A DNA stretch of 64,000 nucleotides, from the NCBI GenBank assembly GCA_963714275.1, contig CAVQNT010000007.1, forward strand, positions 157,447 to 221,446, in the 5' to 3' direction. Under the pieces are notes generated by a model. It was not told the DNA's origin. It saw only the letters and a program-made list of their open reading frames with translations, and ran no database searches. Positions 12,067 through 60,612 of the stretch are shown here, in pieces; within the stretch, counting starts at the first letter, position 1; each line of letters opens with the position of its first letter. The position numbers and the translations under genes were made by a program. Source of the DNA: Candidatus Bathyarchaeota archaeon (lineage in GTDB: Archaea; Thermoproteota; Bathyarchaeia; Bathyarchaeales; DTEX01).

Positions 12067-12150
12067 CCTCTCTAGCTAACTCACTAGTTTTCATTGTTTG
12101 GTGACTAAAATCTCATATACAGCCATTAGCTAGCTAGCTATAATTTAACT

Positions 12151-12411
12151 TTAGTTTTCAAGATCCTCGTAAGCATTGTTGTATCCAGCATCATAAAGCT
12201 TAATCAGGACTTCATATAAATCCGTCGTGTGTCTTGAAATAGGCTTTCCCTCTTTCGTAGCATTAATGATAAAATTAGGATCGGTTTGAAGAAGAAAGTC
12301 CTTGATTATATTTAACTTATCCATTTCTTCTATTAATTTTGAAATTTCTTTTAATGCTTTTGTTACAGCTTCAGTCCTCTTATTTACTTGGCTCAATTCT
12401 TTTATCACCAA
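12151..12411 (-). CDS. Hypothetical protein
   Basis: 86-aa ORF in the AT-rich island. Confidence 0.4.
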   Translation of the reverse strand: MVIKELSQVNKRTEAVTKALKEISKLIEEMDKLNIIKDFLLQTDPNFIINATKEGKPISRHTTDLYEVLIKLYDAGYNNAYEDLEN

Positions 12412-12637
12412 TACGATTTAATTGAATTGGAATATTTATAGAGTATTAATCTTTCATACATTTAATAAATCCTAAGAAAACCTCTGTCTTTAAACTAGTT
12501 ATACTAGCTTAAACCTAGACATTAGCGATTCTTAGAATCCAAACTTGATTAATTATTTTATTTTTACAAATCCAAGATTTGGTTTATAGATTTATAAAAA
12601 GAATGTTTTTGTTATTCTGGAATTGTTTTCTTTTTGT

Positions 12638-13633
12638 TCATGTCCGCTGTGTTCTGTACATTGTGAAGCTTAGGACGCCGTTTCTGTAGAGCAGGTTTTC
12701 GATTTTTGGCTTTACAGGAACAGGGAGAGAGACCTGCCTGAAAAATTTCATGTCCATATAATCGGATGATATGACTACTTCGTGTTCTGAAACTTCGATT
12801 TTTATGTCTTTAGGGTCCAGCCCCGGCAGGTTAGCCAGAACCGTTATTCTGTCTTCGTCCACAAGAACGTCCACTAATGGCGAAATGACCATAGGAGATG
12901 AAACCGAGGCTGGCAGCTGCTCCTCAGGAACTATATGCTGTCTCTTTTTTGGCTTAACACTCATAACTTTAACAACCGCCATTCCTAGAGCGAAGCCTCC
13001 TATATGAGCCCAAAACGCCACGGACGAGGAGAGCCCAAAGAATGAACCTAATCCCATCAGAACTTGGTATAGAAACCAGAATCCTAGATAGTAGAAGGCT
13101 GGAATTTTTGTGAATGTTATGATGTAGACAATGTACACCACCGTTCTTATCCGAGCCTGCGGAAAAAGAAGAATGTAGGCTCCCAAAACAGCCGAAATTG
13201 CTCCCGAAGCGCCGATTGATGGTATAGCTAATTCTGGCGTAATGTAATTGCCAAGGTTAATGTAGCCCGAGATAAGGGCTGATGCGATGTGCGAAAATTC
13301 GGCGAACAAGCCCCCAATCAAGTAAAACAGTAGAAACTTCACGTGACCAAAGGTGTCTTCAACGTTGTCGCCGAAAATCCAAAGAAAAACCATGTTGCTT
13401 CCAATGTGCATGATGTCGGCGTGCAGAAACATGCTTGTAAAAAGGGTTTCCAGCCTTTCGCCTCGGATTATGTTTTCTGGGATAGTCCCATAAGTATAGA
13501 AAATGTCATATTGTGATTCTGGCTGAAGAAACATTAAGATGAAGACAGCGACGTTGATGGCGACCAGTCCCCAAGTCACATAGGGTTTCCGAGTCGGTCG
13601 ATTCTCATCTTGGATGGGAAAAACAGCGACCAT
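12638..13633 (-). CDS. Rhomboid intramembrane serine protease with C-terminal Hsp20/alpha-crystallin domain
   Basis: TSMFLHAD..H..SNM, catalytic GASG and AHIGGF. C-terminus ITVLANLPGLDPKDIKIEV...FFRQVSLP...YRNGVLSF. Confidence 0.88.
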   Translation of the reverse strand: MVAVFPIQDENRPTRKPYVTWGLVAINVAVFILMFLQPESQYDIFYTYGTIPENIIRGERLETLFTSMFLHADIMHIGSNMVFLWIFGDNVEDTFGHVKFLLFYLIGGLFAEFSHIASALISGYINLGNYITPELAIPSIGASGAISAVLGAYILLFPQARIRTVVYIVYIITFTKIPAFYYLGFWFLYQVLMGLGSFFGLSSSVAFWAHIGGFALGMAVVKVMSVKPKKRQHIVPEEQLPASVSSPMVISPLVDVLVDEDRITVLANLPGLDPKDIKIEVSEHEVVISSDYMDMKFFRQVSLPVPVKPKIENLLYRNGVLSFTMYRTQRT

Positions 13634-13755
13634 CCGCTCAACCTCGCAGTCAATAGCACCTTTTCTATACGAACATTAGAAACATAAAGGCTAAATAGTT
13701 TGGCTTCTTTTCCGCCATTACAATTTCTTGTTAAATAAGAATATCTGGTTGATTT

Positions 13756-14868
13756 TCATTTATGCCATGTCAGAAGATTTTCAATCATCCGTTTATAGAC
13801 TTGTATGCTTGCAGCGTATTCTGAGAGTTCAATGCGTTCATTTTTTGTGTGGCTTAACCTTGAGTCTCCAGGACCATACGTTATAGAAGGAACTCCAGTC
13901 TTAGCCCCAAAGATGTTCATGTCTCCTGTGCCTGTTTTTTTAAGGAATTTTAATGGTCCATCAGTGACTTCCACGATGGCTTTCTCCAATGCTTTTACCA
14001 AAAGCGTGGTTCTGTCAGCCACAAACGGCTCAACCTCATCCAAGACCATCGAAGCAACAGACACGTTGGGACAGTCAGAATGAAAGTCGTCAATGACTTT
14101 TTCAATAAAGTTTTCACACAAATTCGTTTTTACTGATGGAGGAAGTCTAATATCAACGTTAAAAAGGCACACGTCTGGAATACCGCCTGAAGTCCGTTGG
14201 CTGCTAACTTTAATTAAGCATGGAGTAATCGAATAAAAAATTCCTTGGGGTGATTGAAATTCAGTGCAAGCGGTCTTAATTTTGTTCCACAGTTCAAAGC
14301 CTTTTTCGATTGCGTTTTCGAGAAGATGTTGGGCGCCGACATGTCCAGAGGTCGTCTGACATTTTATTCGAAAATGTACTTTTCCTTTATAGGCGAATGT
14401 TATGTTCTTTGCTCCACTTGGTTCCCCGAAGATGGCATAATCCACGTCTAATTTTTCATGTAACAGTTGGCGAATTCCTTTTGATGTTTTTTCCTCTTCG
14501 ACAACTCCAGCTACGATTATTCTGCCTTTATTAAGGGTAGACTTGATGTCTGAGGATGCTGAAACCATGGCTGCCAAGGATGATTTTGCGTCGACAGCTC
14601 CTCTTCCATGTAGCCAATTGTTTTCCTTTTTTACTGGTATCCAGCCTGGAACAGTATCCATGTGACCGCAAAGAAGAATGGTCGGAGTCCCAGAACCAAA
14701 TTCTGCGTAAACATTTCCAGCCTTGTCTGTCCGAACTTTCTCAAAGCCATATCTAACAAGTTTGTCTTGTAGAAAAGTTGCCAGTTTTTGTTCTTTTCCG
14801 CTTGGGCTGTAGATTTGAAGCATCTCCTGAAGCAGTGAACAGAAGCTTCTTGATCCAATTTGTTTCAC
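13756..14868 (-). CDS. lysK: [LysW]-lysine/ornithine hydrolase (M20 family)
   Basis: GHMDTVPG, GRGAVDAK, EE, GEPS, GTGDMN, YGPGDSRLSHT; position in operon. Confidence 0.88.
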   Translation of the reverse strand: MKQIGSRSFCSLLQEMLQIYSPSGKEQKLATFLQDKLVRYGFEKVRTDKAGNVYAEFGSGTPTILLCGHMDTVPGWIPVKKENNWLHGRGAVDAKSSLAAMVSASSDIKSTLNKGRIIVAGVVEEEKTSKGIRQLLHEKLDVDYAIFGEPSGAKNITFAYKGKVHFRIKCQTTSGHVGAQHLLENAIEKGFELWNKIKTACTEFQSPQGIFYSITPCLIKVSSQRTSGGIPDVCLFNVDIRLPPSVKTNLCENFIEKVIDDFHSDCPNVSVASMVLDEVEPFVADRTTLLVKALEKAIVEVTDGPLKFLKKTGTGDMNIFGAKTGVPSITYGPGDSRLSHTKNERIELSEYAASIQVYKRMIENLLTWHK

Positions 14869-16112
14869 TCTTTAACTTGAGTTAGCTGAGTAATTCTTGA
14901 AACTTTTTTTTGGGCTTTGAGGATTTTCTTTTCTTCCTCTGACAAAATGTTTTTCAGGATTTCAGATGCCTTCTCGAGCTGGTTCATCTCTATTACGAGG
15001 GGAGGAAGGAAGCGGATGACGGTCTTACCTGCATACAAAAGGAGTAAACCTCTGTTAAGAGCATCCGTTAACATGTCGCCTATGAAGGTTCTGGACTCAA
15101 GCCCAATCATCAAGCCTAAGCCCCTGACTTCGCGTAGAATACGAAGATTGATTACCATTTCCTGCAAAATTTTGATGAATTTGTCTCCGAGGTCTCGAGC
15201 TCTGTCAGGCAGTTTTTCGTCGACTATTGCGTCAATCGTTGCAGACGCAGCTGCGCACGCAAGAGGGTTTCCGCCGAAAGTGCTCGAATGTTCCCCGACC
15301 TCAAGAGAGTCCATAATTTCGTCCTTTGCAATTGTGGCACCGATCGGTATACCCCCGCCCATCGCCTTTGAGACACACATTATGTCAGGCGTAACGCCCC
15401 AATGTTGAGACGCCCACATCCGTCCAGTTCGTCCGAACCCTGTTTGAACCTCGTCGAAGATGAGTACGACGCCTTTTTCGTCGCAAAGGTCCCTCAGTGC
15501 CTTCAGGTAACCGTCAGGAGCAACGTAAACTCCGCCTTCGCCCTGAACAGGCTCAACGATGACGGCTGCAGTTTTTTCAGTGACTGCTTCTTGGACTTTC
15601 TCGATTTTTCCGAACGGTACAAACTTGAAATTTTGTTCAATCAGATGCTGGAAGGAATTTCTATACTTGGGATTATGCGTTGCAGATAAGGCTCCGAGGG
15701 TTTTTCCGTGGAACCCTCTTGTCATACTTATGACTTCAGTCTTCTGAGTGTATTTCACCGCAGCCTTTAGGGCGCACTCGACCGATTCAGCTCCGCTGTT
15801 ACATAGGAAGACTTTGTTCAGCCCTTTGGGACATATCTTGACGAGCTTGTCGACGAGCTCAGCCCTTTTGTCATTGTAGAATGAGCCGTGGCATGAAATC
15901 AGCTTCTCGCACTGTTCCCGAATGGCAGCCACAACCTTCGGGTGACAATGGCCAACTAAACTAACGCCGTAACTGCTCATGCAGTCGATGTATGCTTTCC
16001 CGTTCGCGTCCCAAACTGTTGCCCCCTTACCCTTAACTAGAGCGACAGGAAACTTTTGGTAAACACCTGCGAGATGGGCATTCTCAGCTGCAATTATTTC
16101 GGCTTCATACAA
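14865..16112 (-). CDS. lysJ: [LysW]-aminoadipate semialdehyde transaminase
   Basis: Class III aminotransferase: EPVQGEGG, FDEVQTGFGRTG, SKAMGGG, STFGGNP. Confidence 0.9.
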   Translation of the reverse strand: MYEAEIIAAENAHLAGVYQKFPVALVKGKGATVWDANGKAYIDCMSSYGVSLVGHCHPKVVAAIREQCEKLISCHGSFYNDKRAELVDKLVKICPKGLNKVFLCNSGAESVECALKAAVKYTQKTEVISMTRGFHGKTLGALSATHNPKYRNSFQHLIEQNFKFVPFGKIEKVQEAVTEKTAAVIVEPVQGEGGVYVAPDGYLKALRDLCDEKGVVLIFDEVQTGFGRTGRMWASQHWGVTPDIMCVSKAMGGGIPIGATIAKDEIMDSLEVGEHSSTFGGNPLACAAASATIDAIVDEKLPDRARDLGDKFIKILQEMVINLRILREVRGLGLMIGLESRTFIGDMLTDALNRGLLLLYAGKTVIRFLPPLVIEMNQLEKASEILKNILSEEEKKILKAQKKVSRITQLTQVKE

Positions 16113-16911
16113 CAGTGATCACGGTTCCATTCTTGTGAGTTAATACGCTGGTGATAGGTTCCACTACTAGGCCTGAGGAAATAATGGCTTCTTTAGCTCC
16201 AGCCTTTAAGGCTTCAATCGAGGCTAGAACCTTCTTGTCCATCCCTGCCCCTATTCTTGGCAAAAGACTCTCCGCTTCCTTCATAGACAAAGCCTTAACG
16301 AACTCGCCTTTCATGAGAAGCCCCTGAACATCAGTTAAGAAGACAGCCTTGTCAGCCTTTAGTGCCCCTGCTATCTGGGCAGCTGCTCTGTCGGCGTCAA
16401 CATTCAGGAATTCGTAGTCTTCTCCAAGGGCTATCGGTGATACTACTGGAACGTAACCTTTCTCGACAAGCAGTCCAAGGATACCTGTGTCAACTTTAGC
16501 GATCCTCCCGGTGTAACCGCCATCAATAACGCGTTTCCTGTTGCGTTCATCGATTATGACCAGTTTTTTCTTGCGTTCAGCCCGAAGCATACCTGCGTCC
16601 AACCCAGCTAAGCCCACGGCGTTGATGCCCTTGCTTAATAGCCAACGGACTATTGCTTTGTTTATTTTTCCCGCCATAACCATCGTGAAAATTTCAACTG
16701 TCTCTTCATCCGTGTATCTGCTTCTAATGCCACTGGGTGAGGTGATGAAAGTTTGTTGTTTACCCAGTTTTTGAGCAATCGACGTTACCTCGTCTCCTCC
16801 CCCATGCACAATGACGAGCTTTTCGTTTTCTAAGACCTTCTTAATGTCGTCCGTAAGTTCGAGAGTAAGCCCTTTTTGATAGATATCGCCGCCTATCTTC
16901 ACAACGATCAA
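16105..16911 (-). CDS. lysZ: [LysW]-aminoadipate/glutamate kinase
   Basis: VVKIGG, VHGGG, SRYTD, LNVDADRAA. Confidence 0.92.
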   Translation of the reverse strand: MIVVKIGGDIYQKGLTLELTDDIKKVLENEKLVIVHGGGDEVTSIAQKLGKQQTFITSPSGIRSRYTDEETVEIFTMVMAGKINKAIVRWLLSKGINAVGLAGLDAGMLRAERKKKLVIIDERNRKRVIDGGYTGRIAKVDTGILGLLVEKGYVPVVSPIALGEDYEFLNVDADRAAAQIAGALKADKAVFLTDVQGLLMKGEFVKALSMKEAESLLPRIGAGMDKKVLASIEALKAGAKEAIISSGLVVEPITSVLTHKNGTVITVV

Positions 16912-16923
16912 GACTTTTCACCA

Positions 16924-17976
16924 TTAGACTGGATGCAAACCTGAATCCCACAAGCCTTCTTTTTCGTCCCATCCGCACATTAAGTTCATGTCCTGCACCG
17001 CGGTTCCAGCTGAACCCTTCATCAAATTGTCGAGAGCGGAAAGTAGTACCAGCCTATCTGAGTTTTCGTCAACCTCGAACCCTATGTCGCAGTAGTTGGA
17101 CCCAACAACAATCTTTGGGTCAGGATATCGGAAAACGCCTTTTCTATCTCGAACAAGCCTAATGAAAGGTTCCTGTCCATAGAAACCTCGGTAAATGCGC
17201 CAAATTTCGGGTACAGGTATGGGAGTTTTTAGGAAAACGTGACAGGTTCCTAAGATTCCTCGAACCATATTAACCGCATGCGCAGACATGGCAATAACCA
17301 CTTTTTCCTGAGCTATTAGGCTGACTCCTGCTCCATTTCAGCTGTATGTCGATGTCCCACGGGCTTGTACGGTCTGACGACGCTGTAATGTTCAGGATGA
17401 TGGGAAGAAAGTGAAGGTTTGCCTCCTGCGCCGGATGAACCTACCTTAAAGTCAGCAACTATCCTGTTTTTTTCGATGCTCCCAGACTTTACAATCGGAG
17501 GCTAAAGCCAATATGCCTGTTGCAGCCATGCATCCGGGAGCAGCCACCAGCTGAGCATTCTTTATCTCGTCTCTGTGAAGCTCTGGGAGACCATAAACCG
17601 CCTTTTCCAGCAGTTCGGGGCATCTGTGATTCCAGCTGTACCATTTCACATAATCTTCTGGATTTTTTAGTCTAAAGTCAGCACTTGCATCAATTACCTT
17701 TAAGCCTGTTTCGACGATTTTGGGCATAAAACCAGAGGAGATTCCATGCGGCGTAGCTACAAATAGCAGGTCACAACCGCCGACGATTTTTGTGGGTTCA
17801 GACATTACAAATTTAAGATTAGTTTGCCCTCTGAGGTTAGGGTGAACATGGTGAATGAATTCGCCAGCGTAACTGTTAGAGGTGGCAGCAGCAACCTCAA
17901 CCTTAGGATGTCTCAACAAGAGGCGAAGAAGCTCTCCGCCCACGTAACCGGAAGCGCCAAGAATAGCGACTTTCAC
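16924..17976 (-). CDS. lysY: [LysW]-aminoadipate-phosphate reductase (ArgC-like), frameshifted
   Basis: GASGYVGGELLRLL, ATPHG, DASADFRL, APGC, DNLMKGSAG; split by indels. Confidence 0.9.
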
Positions 17977-18837
17977 TTTTTGTTCACCTCAACTGCGTAT
18001 TTTATGATTTTACCCGGAATGTCAACCTTTGTCGCTGAGTATAATCCTCTGAACTCGACAGTACTGTTAACCTCATGAACCATTATTCCCTTCGAAGATT
18101 CCATGCAGTCAACAGCAAGGACGCCTCCGCCTACGGTTTTGGCAGCCTTTAACGCGATGTTTTCAAGTTCTCCTGTGACTGGGCAAGGCTCGCTTATTCC
18201 TCCTCTGGCAACGTTTGTTCTCCACTCGTCCTGAGGGGAATACCTGTACGAAGCCGCGACCACCTCGTTTCCGATAACGAGGATTCTTAGGTCTCTAGGT
18301 GGACGTTTCACGTACTCCTGAAGGTAATATGTCTGAAGCAAAGCGTTGTTCATTTGTTCTCTCGATTCTACGATGGCTTGGGCTGAGTCCCTGTCTCGAA
18401 CCAAGGCTATGAGCCGCCCCCAGCTTCCCACGACAGGTTTTGAGACAGCGGGGTAGCCGAGGTTTTCAAGGGCTTTGTGCACGCCTTCTTCCGTGAAAGC
18501 CACAAGAGTCTTAGGCGTCGGAATCCCCGCTTTAGTTAAAGCCAGCGTCGTATACAGACTTGTTCCCGCATGTCAACGAAACGTTTAATGGGTTGATCAC
18601 GTGTAACCCAGAATTTTCAAGCACCGCTGTCACATGTAAGCCTCTGAAATAGCTTACACAACGTTGGATGACTACCTCGCCATATTCTGCCTTCATTTTT
18701 TTCGGATTAATGGCAGTATCCAAAAACGTAGCTTTAGGATCAACGAGCTTCAGTTCTACTCCAGCCTTAGCTGCGGAACGAATTAAGGCCTTCTCGTCCC
18801 ATCGGATCCTGTCATAAACGAGCCCTATCTTGTTCAT
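17973..18837 (-). CDS. lysX: Alpha-aminoadipate/glutamate-LysW ligase (RimK family), frameshift ~18550
   Basis: YDRIRWDEKAL, QRCVSYFRG, KPVVGSWGRL, WRTNVARGG, HEVNSTVEF. Confidence 0.92.
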
Positions 18838-18843
18838 CGGGTT

Positions 18844-19044
18844 TTATTCGCCCCAGTCCTCTCCTTCGATTTCCGCCGTTCCAAGGCTTACCTTGCCATC
18901 GGAGCTGAGCTTCACTTCGTAATCCATTCCGCAGTCTGGGCAGCTCACAATTTCGCCTGAGATCACATCTTCTGGAATTTCGAGTTCAGCGTCGCATTCT
19001 GGACATTTTAACTGGAAGGTTAATGCCTCCTTACTTTGTCCCAT
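18844..19044 (-). CDS. lysW: Amino-group carrier protein LysW
   Basis: CPECD...CPDCG Zn ribbon and C-terminal EDWGE. Confidence 0.95.
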   Translation of the reverse strand: MGQSKEALTFQLKCPECDAELEIPEDVISGEIVSCPDCGMDYEVKLSSDGKVSLGTAEIEGEDWGE

Positions 19045-19152
19045 TACGAAGGTTATGATTTTCTTATAAACTTTTCGGAAAAATGAAGATTCTTTAGAAA
19101 ATGATTTATATAGCTGTTTTTTCTTTAATCAATTTGTGTTGGAGGACTTGAC
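19045..19152. promoter_or_regulatory. Divergent promoter region between lysW and the Lrp gene
   Basis: TATA-like TTATAAA (~19064) and TTTATATA (~19104) between divergent starts. Confidence 0.4.
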
Positions 19153-19605
19153 ATGTCCGAGGGACTTGACAACATAGACAGGGCAATTCTTGAGACTCTT
19201 CAAGACGACGCAAGAACAGCTTTAAGAAAGATCGCTGAAAAAACTGGCGTCAGCGAAGCAACAATTTTTGCTAGAGTCAAGAAGCTTCAGGAAAAAGGCA
19301 TAATAAAAAGGTTCACAGCGCTTGTCTCACCTGAACTACTGGGAAAAAGTCTTACGGCTTTCGTTCTCATAAATACGAACCCGAAAAGTTTGCAGACGGT
19401 TCTCGCCTCGTTGCAGGGCATGGAAGACGTTTATGAAGCATATGACATCACTGGGTCTTTTTATGCCATTGCCAAAATTCGTGCAAGCAGTCGTGAGGAA
19501 CTGGCGAAATTAATCGACCAAATAGGGTCAATCGATGGCGTGACAAGCACAGAAACCGCTATTGTTCTACGATGCATCAAAGAGGAGACTCGAGTAAAAA
19601 TATAA
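19153..19605 (+). CDS. Lrp/AsnC transcriptional regulator (LysM-like role inferred)
   Basis: LDNIDRAILETLQDDAR HTH, YDITGSFY; divergent from the lys operon. Confidence 0.9.
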   Translation: MSEGLDNIDRAILETLQDDARTALRKIAEKTGVSEATIFARVKKLQEKGIIKRFTALVSPELLGKSLTAFVLINTNPKSLQTVLASLQGMEDVYEAYDITGSFYAIAKIRASSREELAKLIDQIGSIDGVTSTETAIVLRCIKEETRVKI

Positions 19606-19799
19606 TTTTTCAATTGCCCATTGTGTTTTTTGATGCCTTTAGAAAAGTTTCGGAAATATCACATAATTATTTTACTAGCTAACCAGAGTCCTCATAAAGC
19701 CATGTCACATTTATAAGCGATTTTGAACCTTTGATGGATAACAATTTCCTGAGTAGAAAATCCTTTTTACCTTTCACAACAATATTTTTCTGGAAAAAA

Positions 19800-21045: not shown

Positions 21046-21114
21046 TGTTACCTCTTTTATGTAAGTGTTTATTGTGTTTCTACCTTTATAATGATGGATC
21101 TAATTGATTTACGC

Positions 21115-21277
21115 TAAATTTTACCTCTAAACTCAAACTTTTTCTTTTTTATTCTTTTTCTACCTTTCTCTGTATCCCATTAGACGTGTACATGGTTTAG
21201 TGTGTGTGTACTTGTACCAGTTCTCTTTTAGTACAGTACATTTCAACAGTGGTTTTGTATTTTGTATGTTTTTTTGT
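21115..21277 (+). repeat. ~163-bp non-coding repeat, copy 1 (copy 2 at 29658-29821)
   Basis: Near-identical direct copies (about 5 differences), both starting at TAAATTTTA. Confidence 0.9.
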
Positions 21278-26752: not shown

Positions 26753-26761
26753 TGAGTAAAA

Positions 26762-51387: not shown

Positions 51388-51410
51388 TCGATAAGTGAAA
51401 TTTATCTTCC

Positions 51411-51839: not shown

Positions 51840-52133
51840 AAACTATCACCTCCTTTCAGTCTGGGCTTCAATGTCCATTATGAAGATTTTTATATTAATT
51901 ATTTTGCTGACGAATATTCTGGAGAAACAGATGCTCACTAGAACTAGTAACCTAGCTAGCTTACCCTATGAAACGTTCCGTTTTAAAGTCAAGGTAACGA
52001 GTCTGAGGTTTCCCAGCTAACTAACTAATTCTATGTAAAACTATTATATTTGGGTAATATTATTATTTACATAATATATGTTCCAAAATCAATCAAGCCA
52101 AATATAATAAAAGAAATGAGAGATTGGTAAATA

Positions 52134-52625
52134 ATGGATATAAAGGAACGTTTAGTGGCTATTGGAAAATCGATTATTGCATATACAATATTAATTATTT
52201 TCTTCTTATTTTGCGTGTTTTTTTTGGGAATTAGGGACACAAAATTAATGCTCGTTATTGCATTTAGTTCAATTTTTATAATGTCATTCGTGGTAGTTTT
52301 TTTTCAAGAACAAAAAGCCAAAAAACCTAAACTATATATTGGCAACCTTAAGTGGGTAGAGAATAGACCTTCGCTTCAAACACCATATCTTCGTGTTTAT
52401 GGTGAAGTATGGAATGTAGGCAAAAGGACCGCCCACAATTGTAAACTTAAAGTAGTGGCTAATCAAGGAACAGTTAAAGCGATAGACACAGAAATATCTC
52501 TAGGCTCAATAGATATCAATCAAAAGAAGAGCGTGGACGAAAACATTTATTATGATGGTGAACCTCTCACAAGTAAAACTTTTCATCCAGAATGGACAGA
52601 AAAGAAGAAGAAGAAAAAAGACTGA
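52134..52625 (+). CDS. Membrane protein with C-terminal Ig-like (FxLYD-like) domain
   Basis: Two TM helices, VYGEVWNVGKRTA; AT-rich. Confidence 0.55.
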   Translation: MDIKERLVAIGKSIIAYTILIIFFLFCVFFLGIRDTKLMLVIAFSSIFIMSFVVVFFQEQKAKKPKLYIGNLKWVENRPSLQTPYLRVYGEVWNVGKRTAHNCKLKVVANQGTVKAIDTEISLGSIDINQKKSVDENIYYDGEPLTSKTFHPEWTEKKKKKKD

Positions 52626-52641
52626 AATTTAATCAATTCAA

Positions 52642-53382
52642 CTATCTATTATCCAGTGTCTTTAACAATTCTTGGGCTTTTTGTCCGATACGTTCGGCGA
52701 TTCGGTTGGCTATCTTCTCACCTAATTCATGAGAGGCGTAAATCCTAGGGTCGCGGCCAAAGATGCCTGCTTCTTTTATTCCTTCTTCGCTCTTCAAGTC
52801 TTCTTTCTTGATTTGTTCCATGTCCACGAGTTCTGGTCTTAGGTACATCATGAGCGAGGTTTCCCAGTGTGCAGCGTGATCCATCTTGTCATCTGTTAAA
52901 TCGTAGAGGTCTCCTTCCATCATTGCAAATCCCGTAGCCTTCCTAGTCTTCTTAATTGTGTCAACAGCTGTCTCTATTGCATTCTTCTGTTGTTCAACAT
53001 CGTGACCTGTTACGCCTACGATAACTTGGAACCCCACGTCGACTAATCCTAAGAAGATTTTTTCGTATAACCCTTCTATAAGTTTTTTTCCATACTCGTC
53101 ATCATAGTCAAAAAAGTTCATCGTCCACGGATGCCACTTATTGAGGAACCCCCAATAGGTCGGTGGGACGACCACGCCTCCAAACTTCTCAGCCGTTCTT
53201 ATGAGAATATTGTAAGCCTTGAGGGTATCATTCCCTAAAGGTAGATGCCTTCCATGCCACTCTAAGGAACCGAAGGCACAATATGCCACAGGAAACTTGG
53301 ATACTGCCTCATCCAGTTCATGGGGAAGCATTTCCTCATATCGAACTTTCCGTTTTGTCAGTTTCATCATAAATCTCCTCAA
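52642..53382 (-). CDS. Creatininase family protein
   Basis: GSLEWHGRHLPLGND, GH, DHAAHWETS. Confidence 0.88.
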   Translation of the reverse strand: MRRFMMKLTKRKVRYEEMLPHELDEAVSKFPVAYCAFGSLEWHGRHLPLGNDTLKAYNILIRTAEKFGGVVVPPTYWGFLNKWHPWTMNFFDYDDEYGKKLIEGLYEKIFLGLVDVGFQVIVGVTGHDVEQQKNAIETAVDTIKKTRKATGFAMMEGDLYDLTDDKMDHAAHWETSLMMYLRPELVDMEQIKKEDLKSEEGIKEAGIFGRDPRIYASHELGEKIANRIAERIGQKAQELLKTLDNR

Positions 53383-53480
53383 ATTGAAGGATGCTTTGTT
53401 GCCTACTTAAATTCGTTTCTAGCTAGAATCTCCCATTTTGTGAACAGCATTTTATCAGGGAGACCCCTTTCCAGCTTCAG

Positions 53481-53599
53481 TAACTGGCTAGCTATGTAAT
53501 TGTTTTTGTTTGTGTTTGTTTGTTTAGCCTTGTATTGGTAAGTTTGAGTATTGAAGTATAAGGGCGTAAGTAAGTATGGGTTGGGGGAACTACATTTTA
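53481..53599 (-). repeat. Linker-arm-core element
   Basis: TAACTGGCTAGCTA linker, TG-rich arm, GGGTTGGGGGAAC-TACATTTTA core. Confidence 0.65.
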
Positions 53600-53725
53600 G
53601 CTGCAGCTGCTTTTGGATATAGCTCAAAATAAGAGGCGCATTTAGTATTCTATATGCGTGTAGAATTATTTCTAATATGATGTATGAAACTCCTACGCCT
53701 ATAACGGATTATATAGTGTTACACT

Positions 53726-54145
53726 TCATTTTTCATTTGCTTCAACAACGCCTTTGTTCCAAGAACCTATTTCAATAAGATTGCCCTCGGGATCTGTGAT
53801 CATTGAAGATCGCATTCCCCATGGCTCATCTCGGGGTTTGTAAACCGGTATGGCCCCTGCGCTTATAACTCGAGAATATTCTTTATCCACATCTTCAAAC
53901 CGTGGTAAGTCTAATGCTAATTCAAATGTACCGTTTAGACCTTTTGGATAATCAGGTTTCTTTCCAAGCAGCTTAGGCAATTCTGATCTTTCGTACATGG
54001 AGAATCGTATTCCATGATGTTTAAACTCAGCGTACGGTCCTTTCCCGTCCCATTCGATTTCAAAGCCCAAAACGTCTCGATAGAAAGCGACCATTTTTTG
54101 TAAATCTTGTACAAACAAGCCAATCATATCAAACCTTGTACCCAT
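53726..54145 (-). CDS. VOC / glyoxalase family protein
   Basis: FYRDVLGF, EPWGMRS, DPEGNLIEI. Confidence 0.9.
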   Translation of the reverse strand: MGTRFDMIGLFVQDLQKMVAFYRDVLGFEIEWDGKGPYAEFKHHGIRFSMYERSELPKLLGKKPDYPKGLNGTFELALDLPRFEDVDKEYSRVISAGAIPVYKPRDEPWGMRSSMITDPEGNLIEIGSWNKGVVEANEK

Positions 54146-54165
54146 ATTAAACCCAGCTATCCAAT

Positions 54166-55512
54166 TTATTTGTCGGGAAAAGTAAGCAAGGTCATTAGCT
54201 CAGATATATCTTGCACCTTCTCCAGTGACAATACAGTCTCTGCAATCTGCTCTGCCCGACTTTGGGAGAGAACTCGCAACGCACATTTCATGTACTTGTC
54301 CATGACTTCCTCATCACTAACTATGATTGGGTCAGTGGGCTTTGGACATACCTTCTTGTATTCAGTGCCATCTTTCAGTCTGATAGCTATAGGGATTTCT
54401 CCTCCTAATGGCAACTCGGGAGCAGCCCATTCTGGATGGACAACCATCTTTACCTTGTCTCGGAAGGCTATGACCTGTGGGTGATTCACCCTTTCAGTAC
54501 TGTAGCTCTCTATCCATGGTTTCTTATCCAGAAAACAACAGGCAATACTGTGTGGCAGGCTAAATCTAGCCTCCTCTTCATCTTTCGGGTGATGGAACCG
54601 TATTGTATTGGCAAATACTGGGGAAACATCGACCTGTATGCTTTCCACATCATCCGCAGAAATGTTGTGAGCCTTTATGAGTTCAATAAAGCCATCAATG
54701 GGGTGCATTTCCAGAAAGCAGCAAGGATATTTTTTAATGCCAATATTCTTCGCTCGGTATGGCTCTCCTAATTTCGGGAATAGAGTAGGCTTCCCCAGCC
54801 ACGCCGTGCAAGTATCCCCTAGGCATCTCCAATGATATCTGGCTGGCCCGTGAGACCATGCTTAGCCAACATTGCCGAAGCTATCCCATTCCTCCCAGCA
54901 AGTCCTGCTTCGAAGAGGTGTGAGCCTGTACCGGTCTGGCTCAGAATGCGCCAGCTTGGTATGGGAAGCAGCAACACTTACCGCCATTGTTGTTTTTTCT
55001 AATCCGAGTTTCAACATCTTAGCTGAAGAGGCCGCCACACCTATCGTGCAGAAGGAAGGAGCAATGCCCCGCGACGAAGAAGCATCTTAACAGACTGGCA
55101 AAGATAACTTTCCGGCTATGTCCCAGGCTATGACAAATGCCTCGATGACTTCTTTTCCTGAAACGTGAAGCTTCTCTCCAAGAGCAAAGACGCCGGGAAA
55201 GATTCCTACGCTGTAAATCAAGTCAGGGATGATATCGTCCTCTAACTCTGTAGAGTGAGACGTAGTCCCATTTGCAAGTGCCGCGTACTCCGCTGAAGTG
55301 CGAAAACCAGCACCGAAAACTCCAGCCTCCTGAGGTGCCGCGCATTCTTTTACATAACTTATTACGGCTTTGCCAGCACCAGTATTAACACCAGCTAAGG
55401 TCATACCTACACCACTCAGAAGGACGTTTTTAACGTGTTTTACAAGAGCCGAGTCAAAGTCATCAAAAGTAGTCTTATGGGCAAACTCAGCTATGTCCCT
55501 CGTTGTCCCCAT
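54166..55512 (-). CDS. MmgE/PrpD family protein, frameshifted
   Basis: AALANGTTSHSTELEDD, HPIDG, ARFSLPH. Confidence 0.85.
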
Positions 55513-55551
55513 ATTAGACCCTCTTTAGTTAATTACTGAAAGTTAGTGTAT

Positions 55552-55667
55552 TAAAATTTAATCTTTCTCTGCCACGCTTAGACGCTCACACAGACTCTCT
55601 CTCTCTGTGTCACACAGACAGAGACACATACAGACAGACACAGACACACACAACTAAGCTAGTTAGC
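55552..55667 (+). repeat. Core-arm-linker element (paralog of 45563-45690)
   Basis: TAAAATTTA-ATCTTTCTCT, GACGCTCACACA, CA/GA tract, CTAAGCTAGTTAGC. Confidence 0.8.
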
Positions 55668-55833
55668 CTATAGTAAGACAGTTAGTCAGAGAGATATAGT
55701 TAGAAAGATATAGGCAGAGAAAAAGATTAAGCGCGCGTTGTTTATGAATTATCTATATGATTGCTTTTAAGAAAAATACAAATCGAGGAACACTGTTTTT
55801 TTATTAATATTGTGGTCTTGGAGTGAATATTAA

Positions 55834-57084
55834 ATGACTGAAAAAACGAATCCTCTTGATTCTGCCCTGCAACAGCTGAATATAGCTACTCAGATGTTGA
55901 ATATTGATCCAGGTATTTATGAGATCCTCAAGTACCCAAAAAGAACACTCACGGTATCTGTGCCCGTGAAAATGGATGATGGCGAAATCAAGGTTTTCAC
56001 TGGATACAGGGTTCAACATACCGATGCAAGAGGTCCGTATAAGGGGGGAATTCGATATTACCCAGAAATGAATTTAGATGAAGTAAAAGCCCTAGCCATG
56101 TGGATGACATGGAAATGCGCTGTGACAGATATCCCTTATGGCGGTGCCAAGGGCGGAGTCTCTTGTTACCCCAAGGAAATGTCAATAGGCGAGTTAGAAC
56201 GAATGACACGAAGATATACTTCCATGATTTTTCAGTTTATAGGTCCTTATAGTGATGTTCCTGCCCCAGATGTTTACACTGATTCCCAGACTATGGCTTG
56301 GATTATGGACACCTACAGCCAGATTAAAGGATATTTAGTACCAGAAGTTGTTACAGGTAAGCCATTGCATCTAGGTGGATCAGAAGGAAGAGAGGAAGCA
56401 ACATCCTTAGGCGTCGTCTTTTGTATAAAAGAAGCATACAAAGAAAAAAAGATAAAATTAAAAGGAGCATCCGTGGCTATTCAAGGCTTCGGAAAAGTCG
56501 GATGGAATGTGGCTAAAATCCTTCATGGAGAAGGCTGCAAAATAACCGCTCTTAGCGATTCCAAGGGCGGTATTTACAATCCTGATGGAATAAACCCAAA
56601 TAAAGTCTTTGAATACAAAACACAAACAGGTTCTGTTTTAAGCTACAGTAACTGTAAAAACATAACCAATGAAGAGTTATTAGAATTAAATTGTGACATT
56701 TTGATTCCTGCCGCGATTGAGAACCAGATAACACGGAAAAATGCTGGAAACATTAAGGCAAAGTTGGTGGCAGAGGCTGCTAATGGTCCAACTACTTCAG
56801 ATGGCGGCAAAATTCTCAATGAGAAGGGAATCTTCGTCATCCCAGACATTTTAGCCAACGCTGGCGGCGTCACAGTAAGCTATTTTGAATGGGTGCAAAA
56901 CCTCCACCGTGAACACTGGCCTAAAGAAGAAGTAAACTCGAAGCTTAGAGACAAAATCATTAATGCTTATAGAGATGTTAATCTTATGGCAAAGAAAAGA
57001 GAAGTGGATATGAGAACTTCAGCCATTATGCTAGCAGTGAGAAGAGTGGCAGACGCGTTGAAATCTCTTGGAATATGGCCATAA
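55834..57084 (+). CDS. gdhA: Glutamate dehydrogenase
   Basis: GPYKGGIRY, GGAKGG, DVPAPD, QGFGKVG, EAANGP, NAGGVTVSYFEW. Confidence 0.95.
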   Translation: MTEKTNPLDSALQQLNIATQMLNIDPGIYEILKYPKRTLTVSVPVKMDDGEIKVFTGYRVQHTDARGPYKGGIRYYPEMNLDEVKALAMWMTWKCAVTDIPYGGAKGGVSCYPKEMSIGELERMTRRYTSMIFQFIGPYSDVPAPDVYTDSQTMAWIMDTYSQIKGYLVPEVVTGKPLHLGGSEGREEATSLGVVFCIKEAYKEKKIKLKGASVAIQGFGKVGWNVAKILHGEGCKITALSDSKGGIYNPDGINPNKVFEYKTQTGSVLSYSNCKNITNEELLELNCDILIPAAIENQITRKNAGNIKAKLVAEAANGPTTSDGGKILNEKGIFVIPDILANAGGVTVSYFEWVQNLHREHWPKEEVNSKLRDKIINAYRDVNLMAKKREVDMRTSAIMLAVRRVADALKSLGIWP

Positions 57085-57136
57085 TCAACGATCGGTCGAA
57101 TACAAAAAAAGAGTGTTCAAACGAAGTGATTATCAA

Positions 57137-57251
57137 CTAGCGCTAGCTAGCTTTGGGTTTGGCGCGCGCATTTTTGTGTGTGCGTGTTTTTTGTTTGTTG
57201 TGTGTATTGTATCTCTGTCTCTGCCTGTGTGTCTCTGTGTCTGTGTGTAAG
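57137..57251 (-). repeat. Linker plus TG-rich arm (core absent)
   Basis: CTAGCGCTAGCTAGC followed by a ~98-bp TG/TC tract. Confidence 0.6.
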
Positions 57252-57452
57252 TTACTTTTCTCTTTGTTTTATGATTACTAGATCTCCATCAATAGTAACT
57301 ATGCCAAACCGTGCCATCATCGTTATTTTCTCTTCTACGGTACGCTTTGTTTCTTCATTCTCCCCAAAAGCGCGGATGATCTCTTGTCTTTTTGCTTTAC
57401 CGTTATTTTTCATGAGATACTGATGTATCATATAATCTTGTACCTCAGACAT
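57252..57452 (-). CDS. Small winged-helix-like protein
   Basis: 66 aa, helix-helix-helix-beta hairpin pattern (FGIVTIDGDLV). Confidence 0.5.
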   Translation of the reverse strand: MSEVQDYMIHQYLMKNNGKAKRQEIIRAFGENEETKRTVEEKITMMARFGIVTIDGDLVIIKQREK

Positions 57453-57799
57453 AGATTCACCATGTTATAAATGTCACGAAGAACTTATGTAAGTTTCTAT
57501 TCACACACCAAGGAAACTTCAGAATATTCGGTGTGCAAGTATTTTGTGTGTGGTTTTTTTATTTTTTTTGTGTTCCATTCTCTCACGCTTTGGGAAGTTG
57601 GCTGCTTCTTGCTTTGTGTTGCTGAGCTTTCGCTTATGTGATGGGCCTTCGATGATTTTGGATTATGTGAAGAAACTCCTCTAAACTTGGTTAATATATA
57701 ATATTAATCTTAAATCACATATTTAGAAATCATAAATTTTATGTGCGATTTCGTGTAAATGTGGTTAGATAACAATGTTGTATAAAATTCATAAAATAG

Positions 57800-58288
57800 G
57801 TGGCTATTATGACCCGAGGTAAACCTTGGACTTTTGATGAGGAAAAGCAGCTCAAAAAAATGCTTGGAAATGGAACATCCATAGAAATTGTTGCGGATAA
57901 ACTCGGCAGGAAAGTTGATGCTGTTAGAATGAAGATTGTGCGTCTCGGCTTGTCAAATGTTGTTGAACATTCGTATAGAACAACAACTTTGAAGATGCCT
58001 AAAGATCTTTTCAGCGTTGAGGAAGCTTTGCAGTTTTTGGCTGCTGCGTTGAAGGCTTCTGTTCAGCCGGGGCTGGATAAGGTTGAGGTTCAGAGGCTTA
58101 ATGCTGTTGCGAACCTTGCTAAGACGTACAAGGAGATTTTGGCGGACTATGTTAATTATCGGGGGATTGAAGAACAAATAGTTGAGATGCAAGAGAAATA
58201 TAGTGTTCTTCTAGATAATGCGATCGAGGAGTCCAAGCATAACGCTTCCAAGGTAGCAGAGGCTTCAGACCAAAAAGCGGAATATTGA
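57800..58288 (+). CDS. Myb-like HTH plus coiled-coil protein, possibly of mobile-element origin
   Basis: GKPWTFDEEKQL...VADKLGRKVDAVRMK HTH. Confidence 0.6.
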   Translation: MAIMTRGKPWTFDEEKQLKKMLGNGTSIEIVADKLGRKVDAVRMKIVRLGLSNVVEHSYRTTTLKMPKDLFSVEEALQFLAAALKASVQPGLDKVEVQRLNAVANLAKTYKEILADYVNYRGIEEQIVEMQEKYSVLLDNAIEESKHNASKVAEASDQKAEY

Positions 58289-58620
58289 GGTTCCTTTTAT
58301 CGCTTGAGTTACAGTGCCCATCGAGGATCCTGCCATATTTCTTATTCAGATAGTTTACGTTAAGCCGACTACTGACGAAGTTATCTTCGAAATGTTTCTG
58401 GAGAAGCTATTTTTGTCTGCAAAAAATATTAACTTTTGACCTAAATTGTCTAGAAAATAAAGAAAGATGTTCTTTAATTTGGTTTCAATATTTATATATA
58501 TATAAAAATTAATTCTTAATTCAGTATAAATTAAGGAGGTATATCGAAAAATACTTCTTAAATGAATCATAAATTTTTTTAATTTTTCTCGTCTGCTTCT
58601 GTTAAGAAGGGGAATAATGA

Positions 58621-59050
58621 GTGGAGAATTCTAAAGACTTAAAATTATTCGTTGACGAGCTTCGGAAAGAATGGAAAGCCATGTGGTATTCCATGATTGA
58701 TGACAAAGTTAGGGCTGAAGGTATTGCGGACAAAACCTATGAACGTTTGTTTGTTGATCGTGGGCTTATTTTGTTTGCTTCGAGAAATTTTAGTCCGCCT
58801 GAGTTTCATGAGAATCTTAAGTAAATATTTGTCTTCTGATGAAGCGGAAAGATTTAATCCAAACCCTCTTAGGGGTGGAGTGAGGAAGTTTATTCGGGAA
58901 TACATAACTGTTCAGAAAAAGTCCAGTTTTAAACTTAAAGAAGAGACAAGAGTTGCGTTAGAAGAAATGAAAAGTCATCAGCAGCTCAAACATGGTGGAA
59001 GAGGATGGCTTCACCTAACAATGGACGAAGCCTGTAAAAAGCAATCTTGA
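58621..59050 (+). CDS. Hypothetical protein, frameshift ~58815
   Basis: Two overlapping collinear ORFs. Confidence 0.5.
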
Positions 59051-59308
59051 ATTTTTGAAATGAAAATAGCAAGCTCAGCTAACACACTTGACCCAAATAG
59101 TAGAACAGGCACAAAACGACAACAAAAGGAAAATCGGGATTACTTTCTACTTCAACAGGCATCGGCTCTTAATCTAAGAATCAAACAGCCTCATGATCTT
59201 CCCTTCTTAGCTAGCTAAATTAAAATTTAATCTTTACGAACTAAATTGAGATAGTTTTCGCGAAGTCTTTTTAAGAAACTTGTCAAATAAAACGAAATGA
59301 TGGTTGAT

Positions 59309-60101
59309 ATGTCTAGGTTCTTTAAGCGAAAGAAGAAGGAAGAGAAAGAAGGAAGAGAAAAAAGAAGAGAAAGAGGAAAGTTTGTTGAAGCAACTATGTG
59401 GAGACGATGAAAAACTATATGATGTTCTTGCAACTCTCCTGTATTTGAATCCTATAGCGGGAATATCCAAAACGGATCTCGAGATCCTCATCGAAGAAGC
59501 AGAGAAAAGCAACACGGAAAAAAATTATGAAGAGGCAATTCTCAAAAATAGAATGGTACTGGATAAGGCCATTTTCGAAGCCACTCAAAATCCGAGGGAA
59601 AAGAGTAGATACATCAAAGTCATCCAAGACCTCGCGTCGAAGACCGTACATATGACGGAGAAAACAAAAGAAGGGGTAGAGAAGAATGGACTCACCGACC
59701 AAGTTGCTTCCCTTGAGAGAAGAATTAAGAATTATAAATTTATTAGCGAAAGAATCGAAGACGTACTAAACGTAGACTTCTCAATTTTACAATGAGATAT
59801 TAGTAACGCTGGGAGAAACGGAGAGGCGCGAAGCAAGACGAGAAGAGAGAAGAGAAGCTGAGAGCGAAGAAACGAGAATAGAAGAAGAAGAAAAAGAGAA
59901 ACGAGAAAAGAGAATAAAAACGAGAAGAGAGATGGGAAGAGAAGAGAGAGAAAAAAGTGAGATTGAAGAGCAAAAAGAAGAGCGAAAAGCAAAGGAGAGG
60001 CACGAAGCAAGAGGAGAAGAGAGAAGAGAAAGGCTGAGAGCGAAGAAACGAGAATAGAAGAAGAAGAAAAAGAGAAACGAGAAGAGAGAAGAAAAAGATA
60101 A
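59309..60101 (+). CDS. Helical protein with long E/R/K-rich C-terminal tail, frameshifted
   Basis: ORF 59304-59795 continues in another frame as ERREARREERREAESEETRIEEEEKEKRE; TAA at 60099. Confidence 0.6.
59821..60089 (+). repeat. ~93-bp coding direct repeat (59821-59913 and 59995-60089)
   Basis: GCTGAGAGCGAAGAAACGAGAATAGAAGAAGAAGAAAAAGAGAAACGAGAA occurs twice. Confidence 0.85.
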
Positions 60102-60339
60102 AAATTTAATCCAAAACCCATTCTGTTCTATTCTGTGTATGCTCTCTACATTACTCTTTACTCTACTCTATTCTCTCCTATCACAATATACGATAAGGCT
60201 TCTTCATTAATCAGCGTTTCAAGTGTCTGACTATATCCGACTTTTATTCTTGGAATTTCGAGAGTGCAACAAGTTCTTTAAGGTTAAAAGGGTTTGGGGG
60301 TTAAAATTTACCTACCCGAATAAAGGGTAATTGCATTAG

Positions 60340-60612
60340 CTAGCTAGCTATTCCGAATTCTTGTAGGTTGTAGAATTGTTGAAGGTATTCTACGCCTTTT
60401 TCAGTGGTTTTAATTAAGCCACCGTTATTTTCAGAGTTTGCGATTAATCCTGCTTTTGTGAGTTTTTCTAGGTATTCATCCAGCATTTTGAAGTTCATGT
60501 TGGCTCCGTATACTATTCTTGTTTTTTTGGTGCCTTTTCTCGCAATTTTCAGGATCTCGGCAACAATTTCCAGGTTACTTCTTCTTTGGGACATATACAT
60601 TTTGGTTAACAT
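60340..60612 (-). CDS. Archaeal winged-helix regulator (HTH_45-like)
   Basis: RRSNLEIVAEIL, KKTRIVYGANMN, TTEKGVEYL; the stop lies in a TAGCTAGC linker. Confidence 0.85.
   Translation of the reverse strand: MLTKMYMSQRRSNLEIVAEILKIARKGTKKTRIVYGANMNFKMLDEYLEKLTKAGLIANSENNGGLIKTTEKGVEYLQQFYNLQEFGIAS

Follow-up and report, generated by a model that had tools for sequence, protein, structure and literature searches.

Short AGCT tracts at putative joints of accessory DNA in a Bathyarchaeota genome

Among described systems, the attC sites of integrons span 57-141 bp and form an imperfect hairpin, insertion sequences (ISs) of the IS5 type target YTAR and those of the IS630 type CTAG or TA, and mycobacterial non-homologous end joining (NHEJ), acting on 5' overhangs or blunt ends, leaves fill-in duplications and one-base additions. 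Here we describe short tracts, or linkers, made of AGCT units spaced 4 or 5 bp (the AGCT string can also be read as CTAG, TAGC or GCTA), in a 64,000-bp stretch from a Candidatus Bathyarchaeota archaeon. This whole stretch, called the window, occupies positions 157447-221446 of contig C7 in the host genome G000 (2.64 Mb, 10 contigs, 41-44% G+C). The proposal that the tracts mark joints of accessory DNA pieces holds up on the sequence comparisons given below. A literature search, mostly at title and abstract level, returned no account of tracts like these, and AGCT tracts at seams are not explained by any mechanism described so far.

The frequency of the tracts is not explained by composition. 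With 100 dinucleotide-preserving shuffles per pattern as controls, the window has 13 occurrences of AGCTAGCT (1.18 +/- 1.14 in shuffles, largest 5) and nine of AGCTSAGCT (0.56 +/- 0.76, largest 3). Over the whole genome, CTAGCTAG, TAGCTAGC and AGCTAGCT reach 10.3, 9.5 and 6.6 times the expectation of an order-3 Markov model; contig C2 has 24 strict loci where an order-3 simulation gives 1, and the tract family is still 3.5- to 4.6-fold in excess of an order-4 expectation taken from intergenic DNA only. Loci with at most one mismatch from (AGCT)3 number 92 in the genome, nine of them in the window, and 90 of the 92 are intergenic, a restriction that is automatic since a six-frame stop cannot occupy an open frame. 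The sequence-only reading had taken TAGC, TAAC and TGAC stops to be the repeated unit, and here it has to be corrected: the periodic core is the palindrome AGCT, not stop codons. Between intergenic AGCT occurrences, a spacing of 4 bp was observed 138 times (12 expected) and of 5 bp 145 times (13 expected); other palindromic tetramers give no periodic signal in intergenic DNA, and stop codons at spacing 4 are scarcely enriched (TGA 241 observed to 205 expected, TAA 420 to 371). The fifth base in the 5-bp spacing is mostly C (96) or G (65), not T (19) or A (16). In one respect stops are favoured: of the middle units in TAGC-NNN-CTAG, 15 are TGA and one is TGG, where about 0.3 of either would be expected. 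Tracts are short. Of the 295 whose units are spaced 4 or 5 bp apart, 246 consist of two units, 47 of three, one of four and one of six, and they are bordered by decayed units with one mismatch (AGTC, AGTG, AGTT, AACT, GGCT, TGCT).

The tracts lie at and just outside the ends of DNA duplicated within the genome. An intragenomic comparison gave 1168 non-self matches, with 1050 intergenic block ends, which were set against random nearby intergenic sites unmatched for distance to gene ends. A linker overlaps 57 ends (control 15.6 +/- 3.9) and lies 1-10 bp outside another 53 (14.6 +/- 3.7), 3.6-fold more often than in the controls for the two positions together, but 1-10 bp inside only nine (13.9). 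When only blocks at or above 90% identity are counted, a linker overlaps or lies 1-10 bp outside 54 of the 292 ends, against about 9.7 expected. Even the single AGCT shows this one-sidedness (outside 140 vs 55 expected, inside 52 vs 55), while GATC, TTAA, TGCA, A8/T8 and (GC)n give no outside-only signal, and CA runs, GA runs and a TATA-like module are symmetric about block ends, as parts of the copied blocks. Past the tract, homology resumes at none of 177 linker-abutting ends. The linker was found at one copy only for 100 duplicated ends, at both copies for 28 and at neither for 257. Coverage of whole inter-linker segments by repeats is uninformative (14 real segments fully covered, 7-19 in controls), random segments in larger repeats being covered as well. 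A 9.1-kb inverted duplication (C2:80457-89565 and C2:962456-971573, 98.1% identical) is likewise uninformative: it has clean ends without an AGCT tract and no indels at tracts.

The host genome was also compared with a congeneric sister species (G002), whose shared blocks are 86-98% identical to it. The compared DNA comprised 1.03 Mb (60 stretches from the 40 largest contigs) of its 2.1-Mb genome, and the alignment yielded 217 blocks totalling 661,563 bp at a mean identity of 87.0%. On the host side AGCT is enriched just beyond the block ends: at 265 intergenic ends, AGCT lies outside 30 times (11.7 +/- 3.0, max 20) and inside 13 times (11.0), and AGCT pairs overlap two ends, lie outside five and inside none, against 0.8, 1.0 and 1.0. 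Conserved intergenic DNA is poor in tracts. There are nine intergenic AGCT pairs in the 106,007 bp of host DNA aligned to the sister species (0.85 per 10 kb), 19 in the gaps specific to the host genome that separate collinear blocks (27,347 bp; 6.95 per 10 kb, about 8-fold denser), and 214 in the remaining 519,343 bp (4.12 per 10 kb). This contrast agrees with the earlier impression that the tracts are nearly absent from housekeeping blocks, which is borne out in the window by the 7-kb block 12597-19608, syntenic with G002:C44 at 89%; it has none of the sites listed below, and one AGCTGAGCT at 18903. Segment 21096-31205 is a patchwork whose pieces match six other contigs of the sister species, and 50900-60340 has no DNA match in the sister species except an 80-base match at 57600-57677. 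By our own count of the 27 window matches of at least 150 bp, five of 54 ends touch a listed tract (23117, 23133, 30948, 31126, 60347). Insertions in the host relative to the sister species begin with an AGCT pair exactly at the joint in two of 23 cases, which are small numbers, and the empty sites of 51 insertions or deletions hold no AGCT pair. Two orthologous sites differ by whole units, AGCTAGCTAGCT facing AGCTAGCT, with three units against two at one and three against an irregular tract at the other.

The sequence-only reading had listed 42 linker sites in the window. The strings are present at all 42 and intergenic at 40, but only 21 have at least two AGCT or at least two CTAG per 22 nt. 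The rest are weak one-unit look-alikes, such as those at 35043, 40938 and 43872. All six frames are stopped within 22 nt at nine of the 42, a property that 0.6% of random intergenic 22-mers from the window share, and the five successive stops at period 4 noticed at 45669 are indeed there. The sites and the larger features that they accompany are as follows, where no strand applies except to the 166-bp and 368-bp blocks:

12072-12087: linker CTAGCTAACTCACTAG, 6 bp past the stop of the split Band_7 gene
12127-12140: linker TAGCTAGCTAGCTA, six-frame stops, 10 bp past the stop of ORF 12151-12411(-)
21096-31205: mosaic segment, absent between blocks adjacent in G002:C24, with nine listed linkers
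21278-23626: 2349-bp insertion with four ORFs including Alba, its host a repeated intergenic element
21293-21304: weak linker GTTAGCTGACTA, 15 bp within the left end of the 2349-bp insertion
21878-21890: linker AGTCAGCTAGCTA
23121-23134: linker AGCCAGTCAGCTAG, right after the Alba stop, where two G002-matching blocks end or start (23117, 23133)
23611-23622: linker TTAGTGAGCTAG, 6 bp within the right end of the 2349-bp insertion
24247-24262: linker AGCTAGCTAGGTTAGG, providing the stop of URO-D fragment 24253-24978(-)
29614-29628: linker GCTAGCTAGCTATAG then CGCG, six-frame stops
30004-30019: weak linker TAGCTGACTGGCTTAG
30933-30952: linker TAATAGCTAAGCTCAGCTAA, touching the duplicated 166-bp block at its left end
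30950-31115, + strand: 166-bp block, with copies at 38358-38523 (reverse, 100% identity) and C4:126356-126492 (94%)
31114-31131: linker AGCTAGCTCAGCTCAGTA, touching the 166-bp block at its right end
35043-35055: weak linker TAGTTAGCCAGTC, end of a repeated intergenic module
36438-36449: weak linker GCTAGCTGACCT
36508-36517: weak linker TAACTAGCTT
37539-37549: linker GCTAGCTAGCT, six-frame stops
37737-37750: linker TTAGTCAGCTTGCT, the point where paralogous C6:312831-315348 holds a three-gene cassette
38186-38193: weak linker TCAGCTAG, end of a block common to C6:315349-315756
38256-38269: linker TAGCTCAGCTAGCA
38346-38359: weak linker TTAGCTCGCTGACT, beside the second copy of the 166-bp block
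39908-39918: linker GCTAGCTAGCA, adjoining the TATA/GGGTTTGGGG module
39941-39954: linker AGCTGAGCTAACTA, six-frame stops
40938-40946: weak linker AGCTGACTA, providing the stop of ORF 40944-41492(-)
41659-41676: weak linker CTAGTCAGTAGCCAGCTA
43872-43881: weak linker GCTGACTTAG
43897-43912: linker CTGAGTTAGTTAGCTA, right after the stop of ORF 43917-44234(-)
45151-45164: linker CTAGCTCAGCTCAC, its last 4 bases overlapping the stop end of small ORF 45161-45325(-)
45669-45692: longest tract of the window, CTAGCTAACTAGCTAGCTAAGCTT, where the 368-bp block is joined on its left
45685-46052, + strand: 368-bp block, 98.6% identical to C6:453741-454108
46054-46065: linker TTAGTTAGCTAA, six-frame stops, where the 368-bp block is joined on its right
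46169-46182: weak linker TCAGTCATCTAGCT
46674-46686: weak linker TAGCTGAGTTAGC
47205-47215: weak linker CTAGTGAGCTG
50984-50997: linker CTAGCTAGCCAGCT, upstream of the thermosome gene
51056-51069: linker TTAGCTCAGCTAGC
51944-51961: linker CTAGTAACCTAGCTAGCT
52015-52028: linker AGCTAACTAACTAA, six-frame stops
53419-53426: linker CTAGCTAG
53481-53494: linker TAACTGGCTAGCTA, start of a repeated GT-rich module (blocks common to C2:946193 and C2:357519)
55654-55667: linker CTAAGCTAGTTAGC, after a CA-rich tract
57137-57152: linker CTAGCGCTAGCTAGCT, then GGGTTTGG, GCGCGCGC and a GT-rich tract
59067-59082: linker TAGCAAGCTCAGCTAA
59207-59218: linker TTAGCTAGCTAA, six-frame stops
60336-60350: linker TTAGCTAGCTAGCTA, providing the stop of ORF 60340-60612(-), where blocks common to C2, C6 and G002:C9 begin

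Alignments at two of these places give instances of such joints. (i) At one and the same end, each of the three copies of the 166-bp block has an AGCT string of its own. (ii) The 368-bp block is flanked by tracts on both sides in the window and in C6 on one side only. Elsewhere, the tract-flanked three-gene cassette C6:312831-315348, of 2.5 kb, takes the place of 30 bp at 37748-37777, and the 2349-bp insertion has an empty site at 29815-29821, with a 7-bp overlap, TTTTTGT.

Independent metagenome contigs (contigs, not raw reads) span many of the tracts, which counts against the concern that the junctions might exist only in this assembly. X1 record 4 covers 36220-37975, and X1 record 7 and X2 record 16 cover 46014-46780, all with few differences, and parts of 29500-39400 occur in 24 public runs from 19 studies. 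Four public runs gave fragmentary contigs that break at repeats, in which no empty site or strain polymorphism was resolved at a tract. Some run joints had AGCTAGCTA or AGCTATCTAA between the sides; these had 20-21 fitting letters on the shorter side, some on the repeated TATA module, and were not counted. A metagenome scan with the thermosome returned no strain-level relative (best match 87% protein identity). In four sediment metagenomes, contig depth at 40616-41943, 43936-45263 and 46592-47255 is 5- to 60-fold that of neighbouring bins. These stretches correspond to ORFs 40944-41492, 44380-45054 and 46716-47069, which belong to no firm Pfam family and have loose contig ends at their borders; the sister species matches the first at 71% only. 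The three ORFs may be shared with more abundant relatives or other organisms.

The genes of the window are ordinary metabolic ones, several of them truncated or split: Band_7 reads in two frames at 11181-12066, ArgC as two ORFs at 17452-18503, URO-D lacks about 96 N-terminal profile positions (24253-24978), glutaminyl cyclase is half a gene (40407-40868), and PrpD is in two pieces separated by a 378-bp gap (54166-55512). These are either real pseudogenes or assembly indel errors. The sole Rfam match in the window is a tRNA gene (10659-10734), of which a fragment recurs at C2:876465, and the tracts match no Rfam model.

Tracts are gathered in islands, on C2 (280-400 kb and 900-990 kb), C4 (90-156 kb), C5 (140-190 kb), C6 (450-490 kb), C7 (130-221 kb, which includes the window), C9 and C10. 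They accompany other intergenic modules of low complexity, namely GCGCGCGC, CA and GA runs, and a 56-copy TATA-like module. Such simple repeats are themselves enriched and nearly all intergenic (GCGCGCGC 18-fold; CG runs intergenic in 52 of 56 cases, AAACCC in 13 of 13), as are CA/GT and GA runs, with window examples at 57160-57167 and 45600-45668. CACACACA exceeds its order-3 Markov expectation 3.3-fold genome-wide, and GCGCGCGCTA adjoins AGCT tracts in the distant genome G138 as well. The 56-copy module can be written as (GAGAGAAAGA)-TTAAAATTTAAT-CCCCAAACCC, or as GAGAGAAAGA or GTGTGTGCA followed by TTAAAATTTAAT and CCCCAAACCCAAACCC; window copies lie at about 29885, 39921(-), 45552(-), 47430 and 60099. 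From its sequence it looks like an archaeal BRE/TATA promoter followed by a C-rich leader, with G-rich DNA to its left, C-rich DNA to its right, and differing arms that are shuffled where the TATA-like palindrome lies. A search of 927 kb of related metagenome loci did not return it. A further repeat of about 35 bp, (C)AAGTATAAAAAATCGCAACCTAAATCGACGCA, has a TATA-like core and stands immediately next to AGCT tracts in the host and the sister species (G002:C17:400-450 and 3120-3150; G000:C1 at about 75300 and 79900).

We tentatively favour, with somewhat less than even confidence, the reading that the tracts are made or used at DNA break-and-join events. A staggered break would fall within an AGCT palindrome in non-coding accessory DNA; fill-in and re-joining would duplicate one 4-bp unit, sometimes with one extra base; a captured or duplicated fragment could lie between the ends but need not; and each such joint would be left with an AGCT tract. 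Being rich in stops, the tract would persist only outside genes and would end any frame entering it, so that insulation would be a by-product, at most secondarily selected. What we infer here is the break, the fill-in and the joining, the direction (whether a tract is scar or target), and any enzyme. Of the earlier claim of a DNA-joining signature, then, the positional part stands: tracts lie where duplicated and syntenic blocks end or immediately beyond, homology never resumes past them, and they are concentrated in lineage-specific DNA. No enzyme was found to complete it, and the co-distributed one once suggested did not emerge: reverse transcriptase (RT) is absent from the host genome, and tyrosine recombinases, though numerous, are not distributed like the trait.

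Several observations weigh against the break-and-join reading. Only some 15-20% of block ends have a tract and most rearrangements are without one, which makes tract-making one process among several. Genes were called with a crude home-made caller, and 'intergenic' is defined by its calls. Since tracts are enriched at stop codons and the block-end controls were unmatched for distance to gene ends, the block-end signal could be partly indirect. The signal is weak on the sister-species side (AGCT outside block ends 14, vs 9.6 +/- 2.8), the tracts of the 2349-bp insertion lie 15 bp and 6 bp inside its ends and not at the joint, and several other insertions are plain integrations of the classical type beside tRNA 3' ends. 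The G/C preference at the fifth base and the frequent GACT and CACT units are not predicted by simple fill-in. Among enzymes, Pfam searches found no TnpB or DDE_Tnp_1 (IS4/5) and no RVT_1 (RT) or Ku in the host genome, RT and Ku being absent from all seven genomes of the genus. DDE_3 (IS630) and RE_MjaI matched none of five tract-rich genomes, RE_MjaI being the only AGCT/CTAG-type enzyme sought and its control matching M. jannaschii. A stand-alone LigD phosphoesterase domain occurs in six of seven genomes of the genus, tract-free ones included.

One integration of the tRNA kind is a 1.8-kb insertion in the host (G000:C1:77972-79801, facing G002:C17:506-520) bounded by a direct repeat of an apparent tRNA 3' end (...GGGGCTCCA); it is a classical integrase-type integration, unrelated to AGCT tracts. 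Two insertions in the sister species likewise follow tRNA-like 3' ends.

The tracts could instead be ordinary AGCT microsatellites, arising by slippage or hairpin self-priming, tolerated outside genes, commoner in young DNA and serving passively as microhomology for crossovers, with no dedicated system. We consider this unlikely, though by no means negligible. Unit number does vary at orthologous sites of the two species, edge units are decayed (AGTT, AACT, GGCT, TGCT), and other repeats are enriched and intergenic too (GCGCGCGC, CACACACA, (CG)n, AAACCC). Linker columns are conserved like other intergenic ones (0.824 vs 0.823), a comparison over 210 columns that lie mostly inside genes, with a single intergenic tract inside a block. 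The mismatch-repair gene NucS/EndoMS of the host genome (G000:C7:43251-43611, outside the window) is in two overlapping pieces in different frames. NucS has a single frame in G002, G138, G102, G001, G054, G110 and G151, however, and its loss was rejected as a common cause, the gene being intact in the tract-rich G002, G138 and G102. Free slippage would not be expected to give so narrow a range of sizes, with 246 of 295 tracts at two units, a maximum of six and no long alleles. The 100%-identical, hence very recent, duplication already has irregular 5-bp-spaced tracts at its joints, and a crossover at shared microhomology would leave the tract at both copies, whereas it stands outside the block and mostly at one copy; (CA)n and (GA)n are symmetric about block ends. 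We prefer break-and-join to passive microsatellites because the tract is outside the copied block, usually at one copy, and differs even at the 100%-identical duplication.

A stronger version of the joining idea is doubtful: a gene-capture or DNA-joining system present in several lineages, inserting genes or fragments into non-coding DNA, capping the joints with an AGCT six-frame insulating stop, and spread horizontally. Such spread would leave tract-rich genomes scattered among tract-free relatives. The exact 12-mer GCTAGCTAGCTA occurs 31 times in the host genome and seven times in the sister species; a search of the 29 other nearest genomes returned none. Of 251 genomes sampled from the class, 20 have it, and only some five in abundance: G138 (80), G102 (53) and G084 (37), which belong to one family, G143 (22), which belongs to another, and the host genome; the reversed control pattern gives 0-9. 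In all, tracts occur in at least four families of the class and are absent from most relatives. A 16-kb stretch of G138 has 16 copies of AGCTAGCT (0.17 expected), many of them touching ORF stops, and AGCTSAGCT is not enriched in it, which makes the 5-bp variant a feature of the lineage of the host genome. The G138 and G102 loci were read by eye.

Position relative to genes suggests another explanation, in which the tracts are selected cis-elements of expression. Situated between cassettes or downstream of genes, they would be universal stops of translation or insulators, or would signal the 3' ends of transcripts. Tracts overlap 34 called stop codons (control 11.6 +/- 2.6) and lie within 10 bp of 66 (35.4), with no enrichment at starts (3 vs 6.1). 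The six-frame stops at nine of the 42 listed sites and the preference for TGA as middle unit point the same way, as do five of 13 tract loci in the G138 stretch, which by eye touch or come within 6 bp of an ORF stop. Contact with ORF ends is partly automatic, however, since any frame that meets a six-frame stop ends there. The period is that of AGCT and spacing-4 TGA and TAA are scarcely enriched; the fifth base is mostly C or G, though A or T would give as many stops or more; a duplicated gene leaves its tract behind; and tracts are scarce in conserved intergenic DNA, where expression signals are needed as well. The stop-bearing strand of AGCTGAGCT has no orientation to the 3' ends of neighbouring genes (73 vs 84; median gene distances about 150-280 bp), and back-up stops for the upstream gene were rejected on that count. 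On balance an expression role is rather improbable.

Quite improbable, too, is a role of the tracts as binding sites for some lineage-specific protein (a nucleoid, roadblock or boundary factor, or a methyltransferase with this target) whose distribution would be as patchy as theirs. A palindromic 12-14-mer is of the size of a dimer site, and the short, narrow size range, patchy lineage-specific spread and strictly non-coding location would suit one. A fixed site should not vary in unit number and between 4- and 5-bp spacing, the distance to starts and stops is not fixed, no candidate protein was identified, and the stop of homology at the tract would go unexplained.

Known mobile DNA, whether attC sites, CTAG target duplications or footprints of IS5/IS630, or REP-like elements moved by a Y1 transposase, is very improbable as the source. 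The units CTAG, CTAA and TTAG fit YTAR, the IS5-type target, the exchange between C6:312831-315348 and window positions 37748-37777 is cassette-like, and the host genome has 18 tyrosine recombinase matches; but tract-free G001 has 13 such integrase matches. None of eight paired-linker stretches (linkers 50-100 bp apart) folds like attC or better than shuffles (z -1.37 to +1.07). Neighbouring linkers have no orientation relation, on which test their pairing as terminal inverted or direct repeats was rejected. The self-comparison contains no IS-like family of high identity, only paralogous genes and intergenic modules at 70-100% identity. The Pfam search found no Y1_Tnp in the host or the sister species, which adds to the lack of TnpB and DDE_Tnp_1 in the host and of DDE_3 in the five tract-rich genomes; a like result for Y2_Tnp (0 of 5) is uninformative, its control matching nowhere. 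The recombinases lie for example at C2:307530, C4:14996, C6:369715, C2:557968 and C10:22212, and several adjoin repeated 0.3-2-kb blocks, 75-91% identical, on C2, C4, C5, C6 and C10, which suggests multiple related integrated elements. An artefact, in the form of adaptor or linker sequence or of assembly mis-joins, is scarcely credible: CTAGCTAGCTAG resembles commercial three-frame stop linkers and several split genes could be sequencing errors, but the tracts are degenerate and diverse, stand at orthologous places in the sister species, are present in independently assembled genomes of at least four families, and are covered with few differences by contigs from other public runs.

AGCT tracts offer a simple searchable mark for the seams of mosaic accessory genomes in uncultured sediment archaea. 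If a dedicated system is at work, it would be a new archaeal route of gene acquisition with a natural translation insulator; if not, the tracts would represent a clear sequence-specific hotspot of mutation or recombination that shapes genome architecture.

We close by setting the tracts beside known systems. Polymerases can extend hairpin-forming repeats without template (PMC13061963, which cites Ogata and Miura 2000 for an archaeal polymerase with this activity), a chemistry in keeping with the break-and-join reading. Such template-free or hairpin-primed extension resembles the tracts in giving short self-complementary tandem repeats at DNA ends; it differs in being known only in vitro. IS5 and IS630 target duplications share with the tracts the tandem 4-bp units CTAG, CTAA and TTAG at places of insertion, but no matching transposase and no IS copies were found in the host, and the inserts are unrelated ordinary genes without terminal repeats. 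REP, BIME and BOX elements are likewise short palindromic intergenic repeats in hundreds of copies, often after genes, and form mosaics with other modules (here the TATA/CCCAAACCC module and GC, CA and GA runs). In our case there is no RAYT/Y1 transposase, the repeat is a tandem tetramer and not a hairpin of 20-40 nt, the tract stands outside the copied blocks, and the host is an archaeon.

Integron cassettes are similar in that single genes or small groups, bounded by short recurring elements, lie in accessory DNA and are present or absent at the same point of paralogous loci. They differ in that the tracts have no attC hairpin (8 of 8 stretches), no orientation bias between neighbours and a length of only 8-24 bp; IntI was not specifically sought. 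NHEJ scars of the Ku/LigD type differ in that Ku was found in none of the seven genomes of the genus, the extra base is G or C, no matching nuclease turned up among those sought, and the same tetramer recurs genome-wide, by which an NHEJ-like route would need a sequence-specific break. On the break-and-join reading the tracts would share with these scars a palindromic 4-bp unit duplicated at the joint with an occasional extra base, the capture of fragments between the ends, and a restriction to places where a frameshift is harmless.

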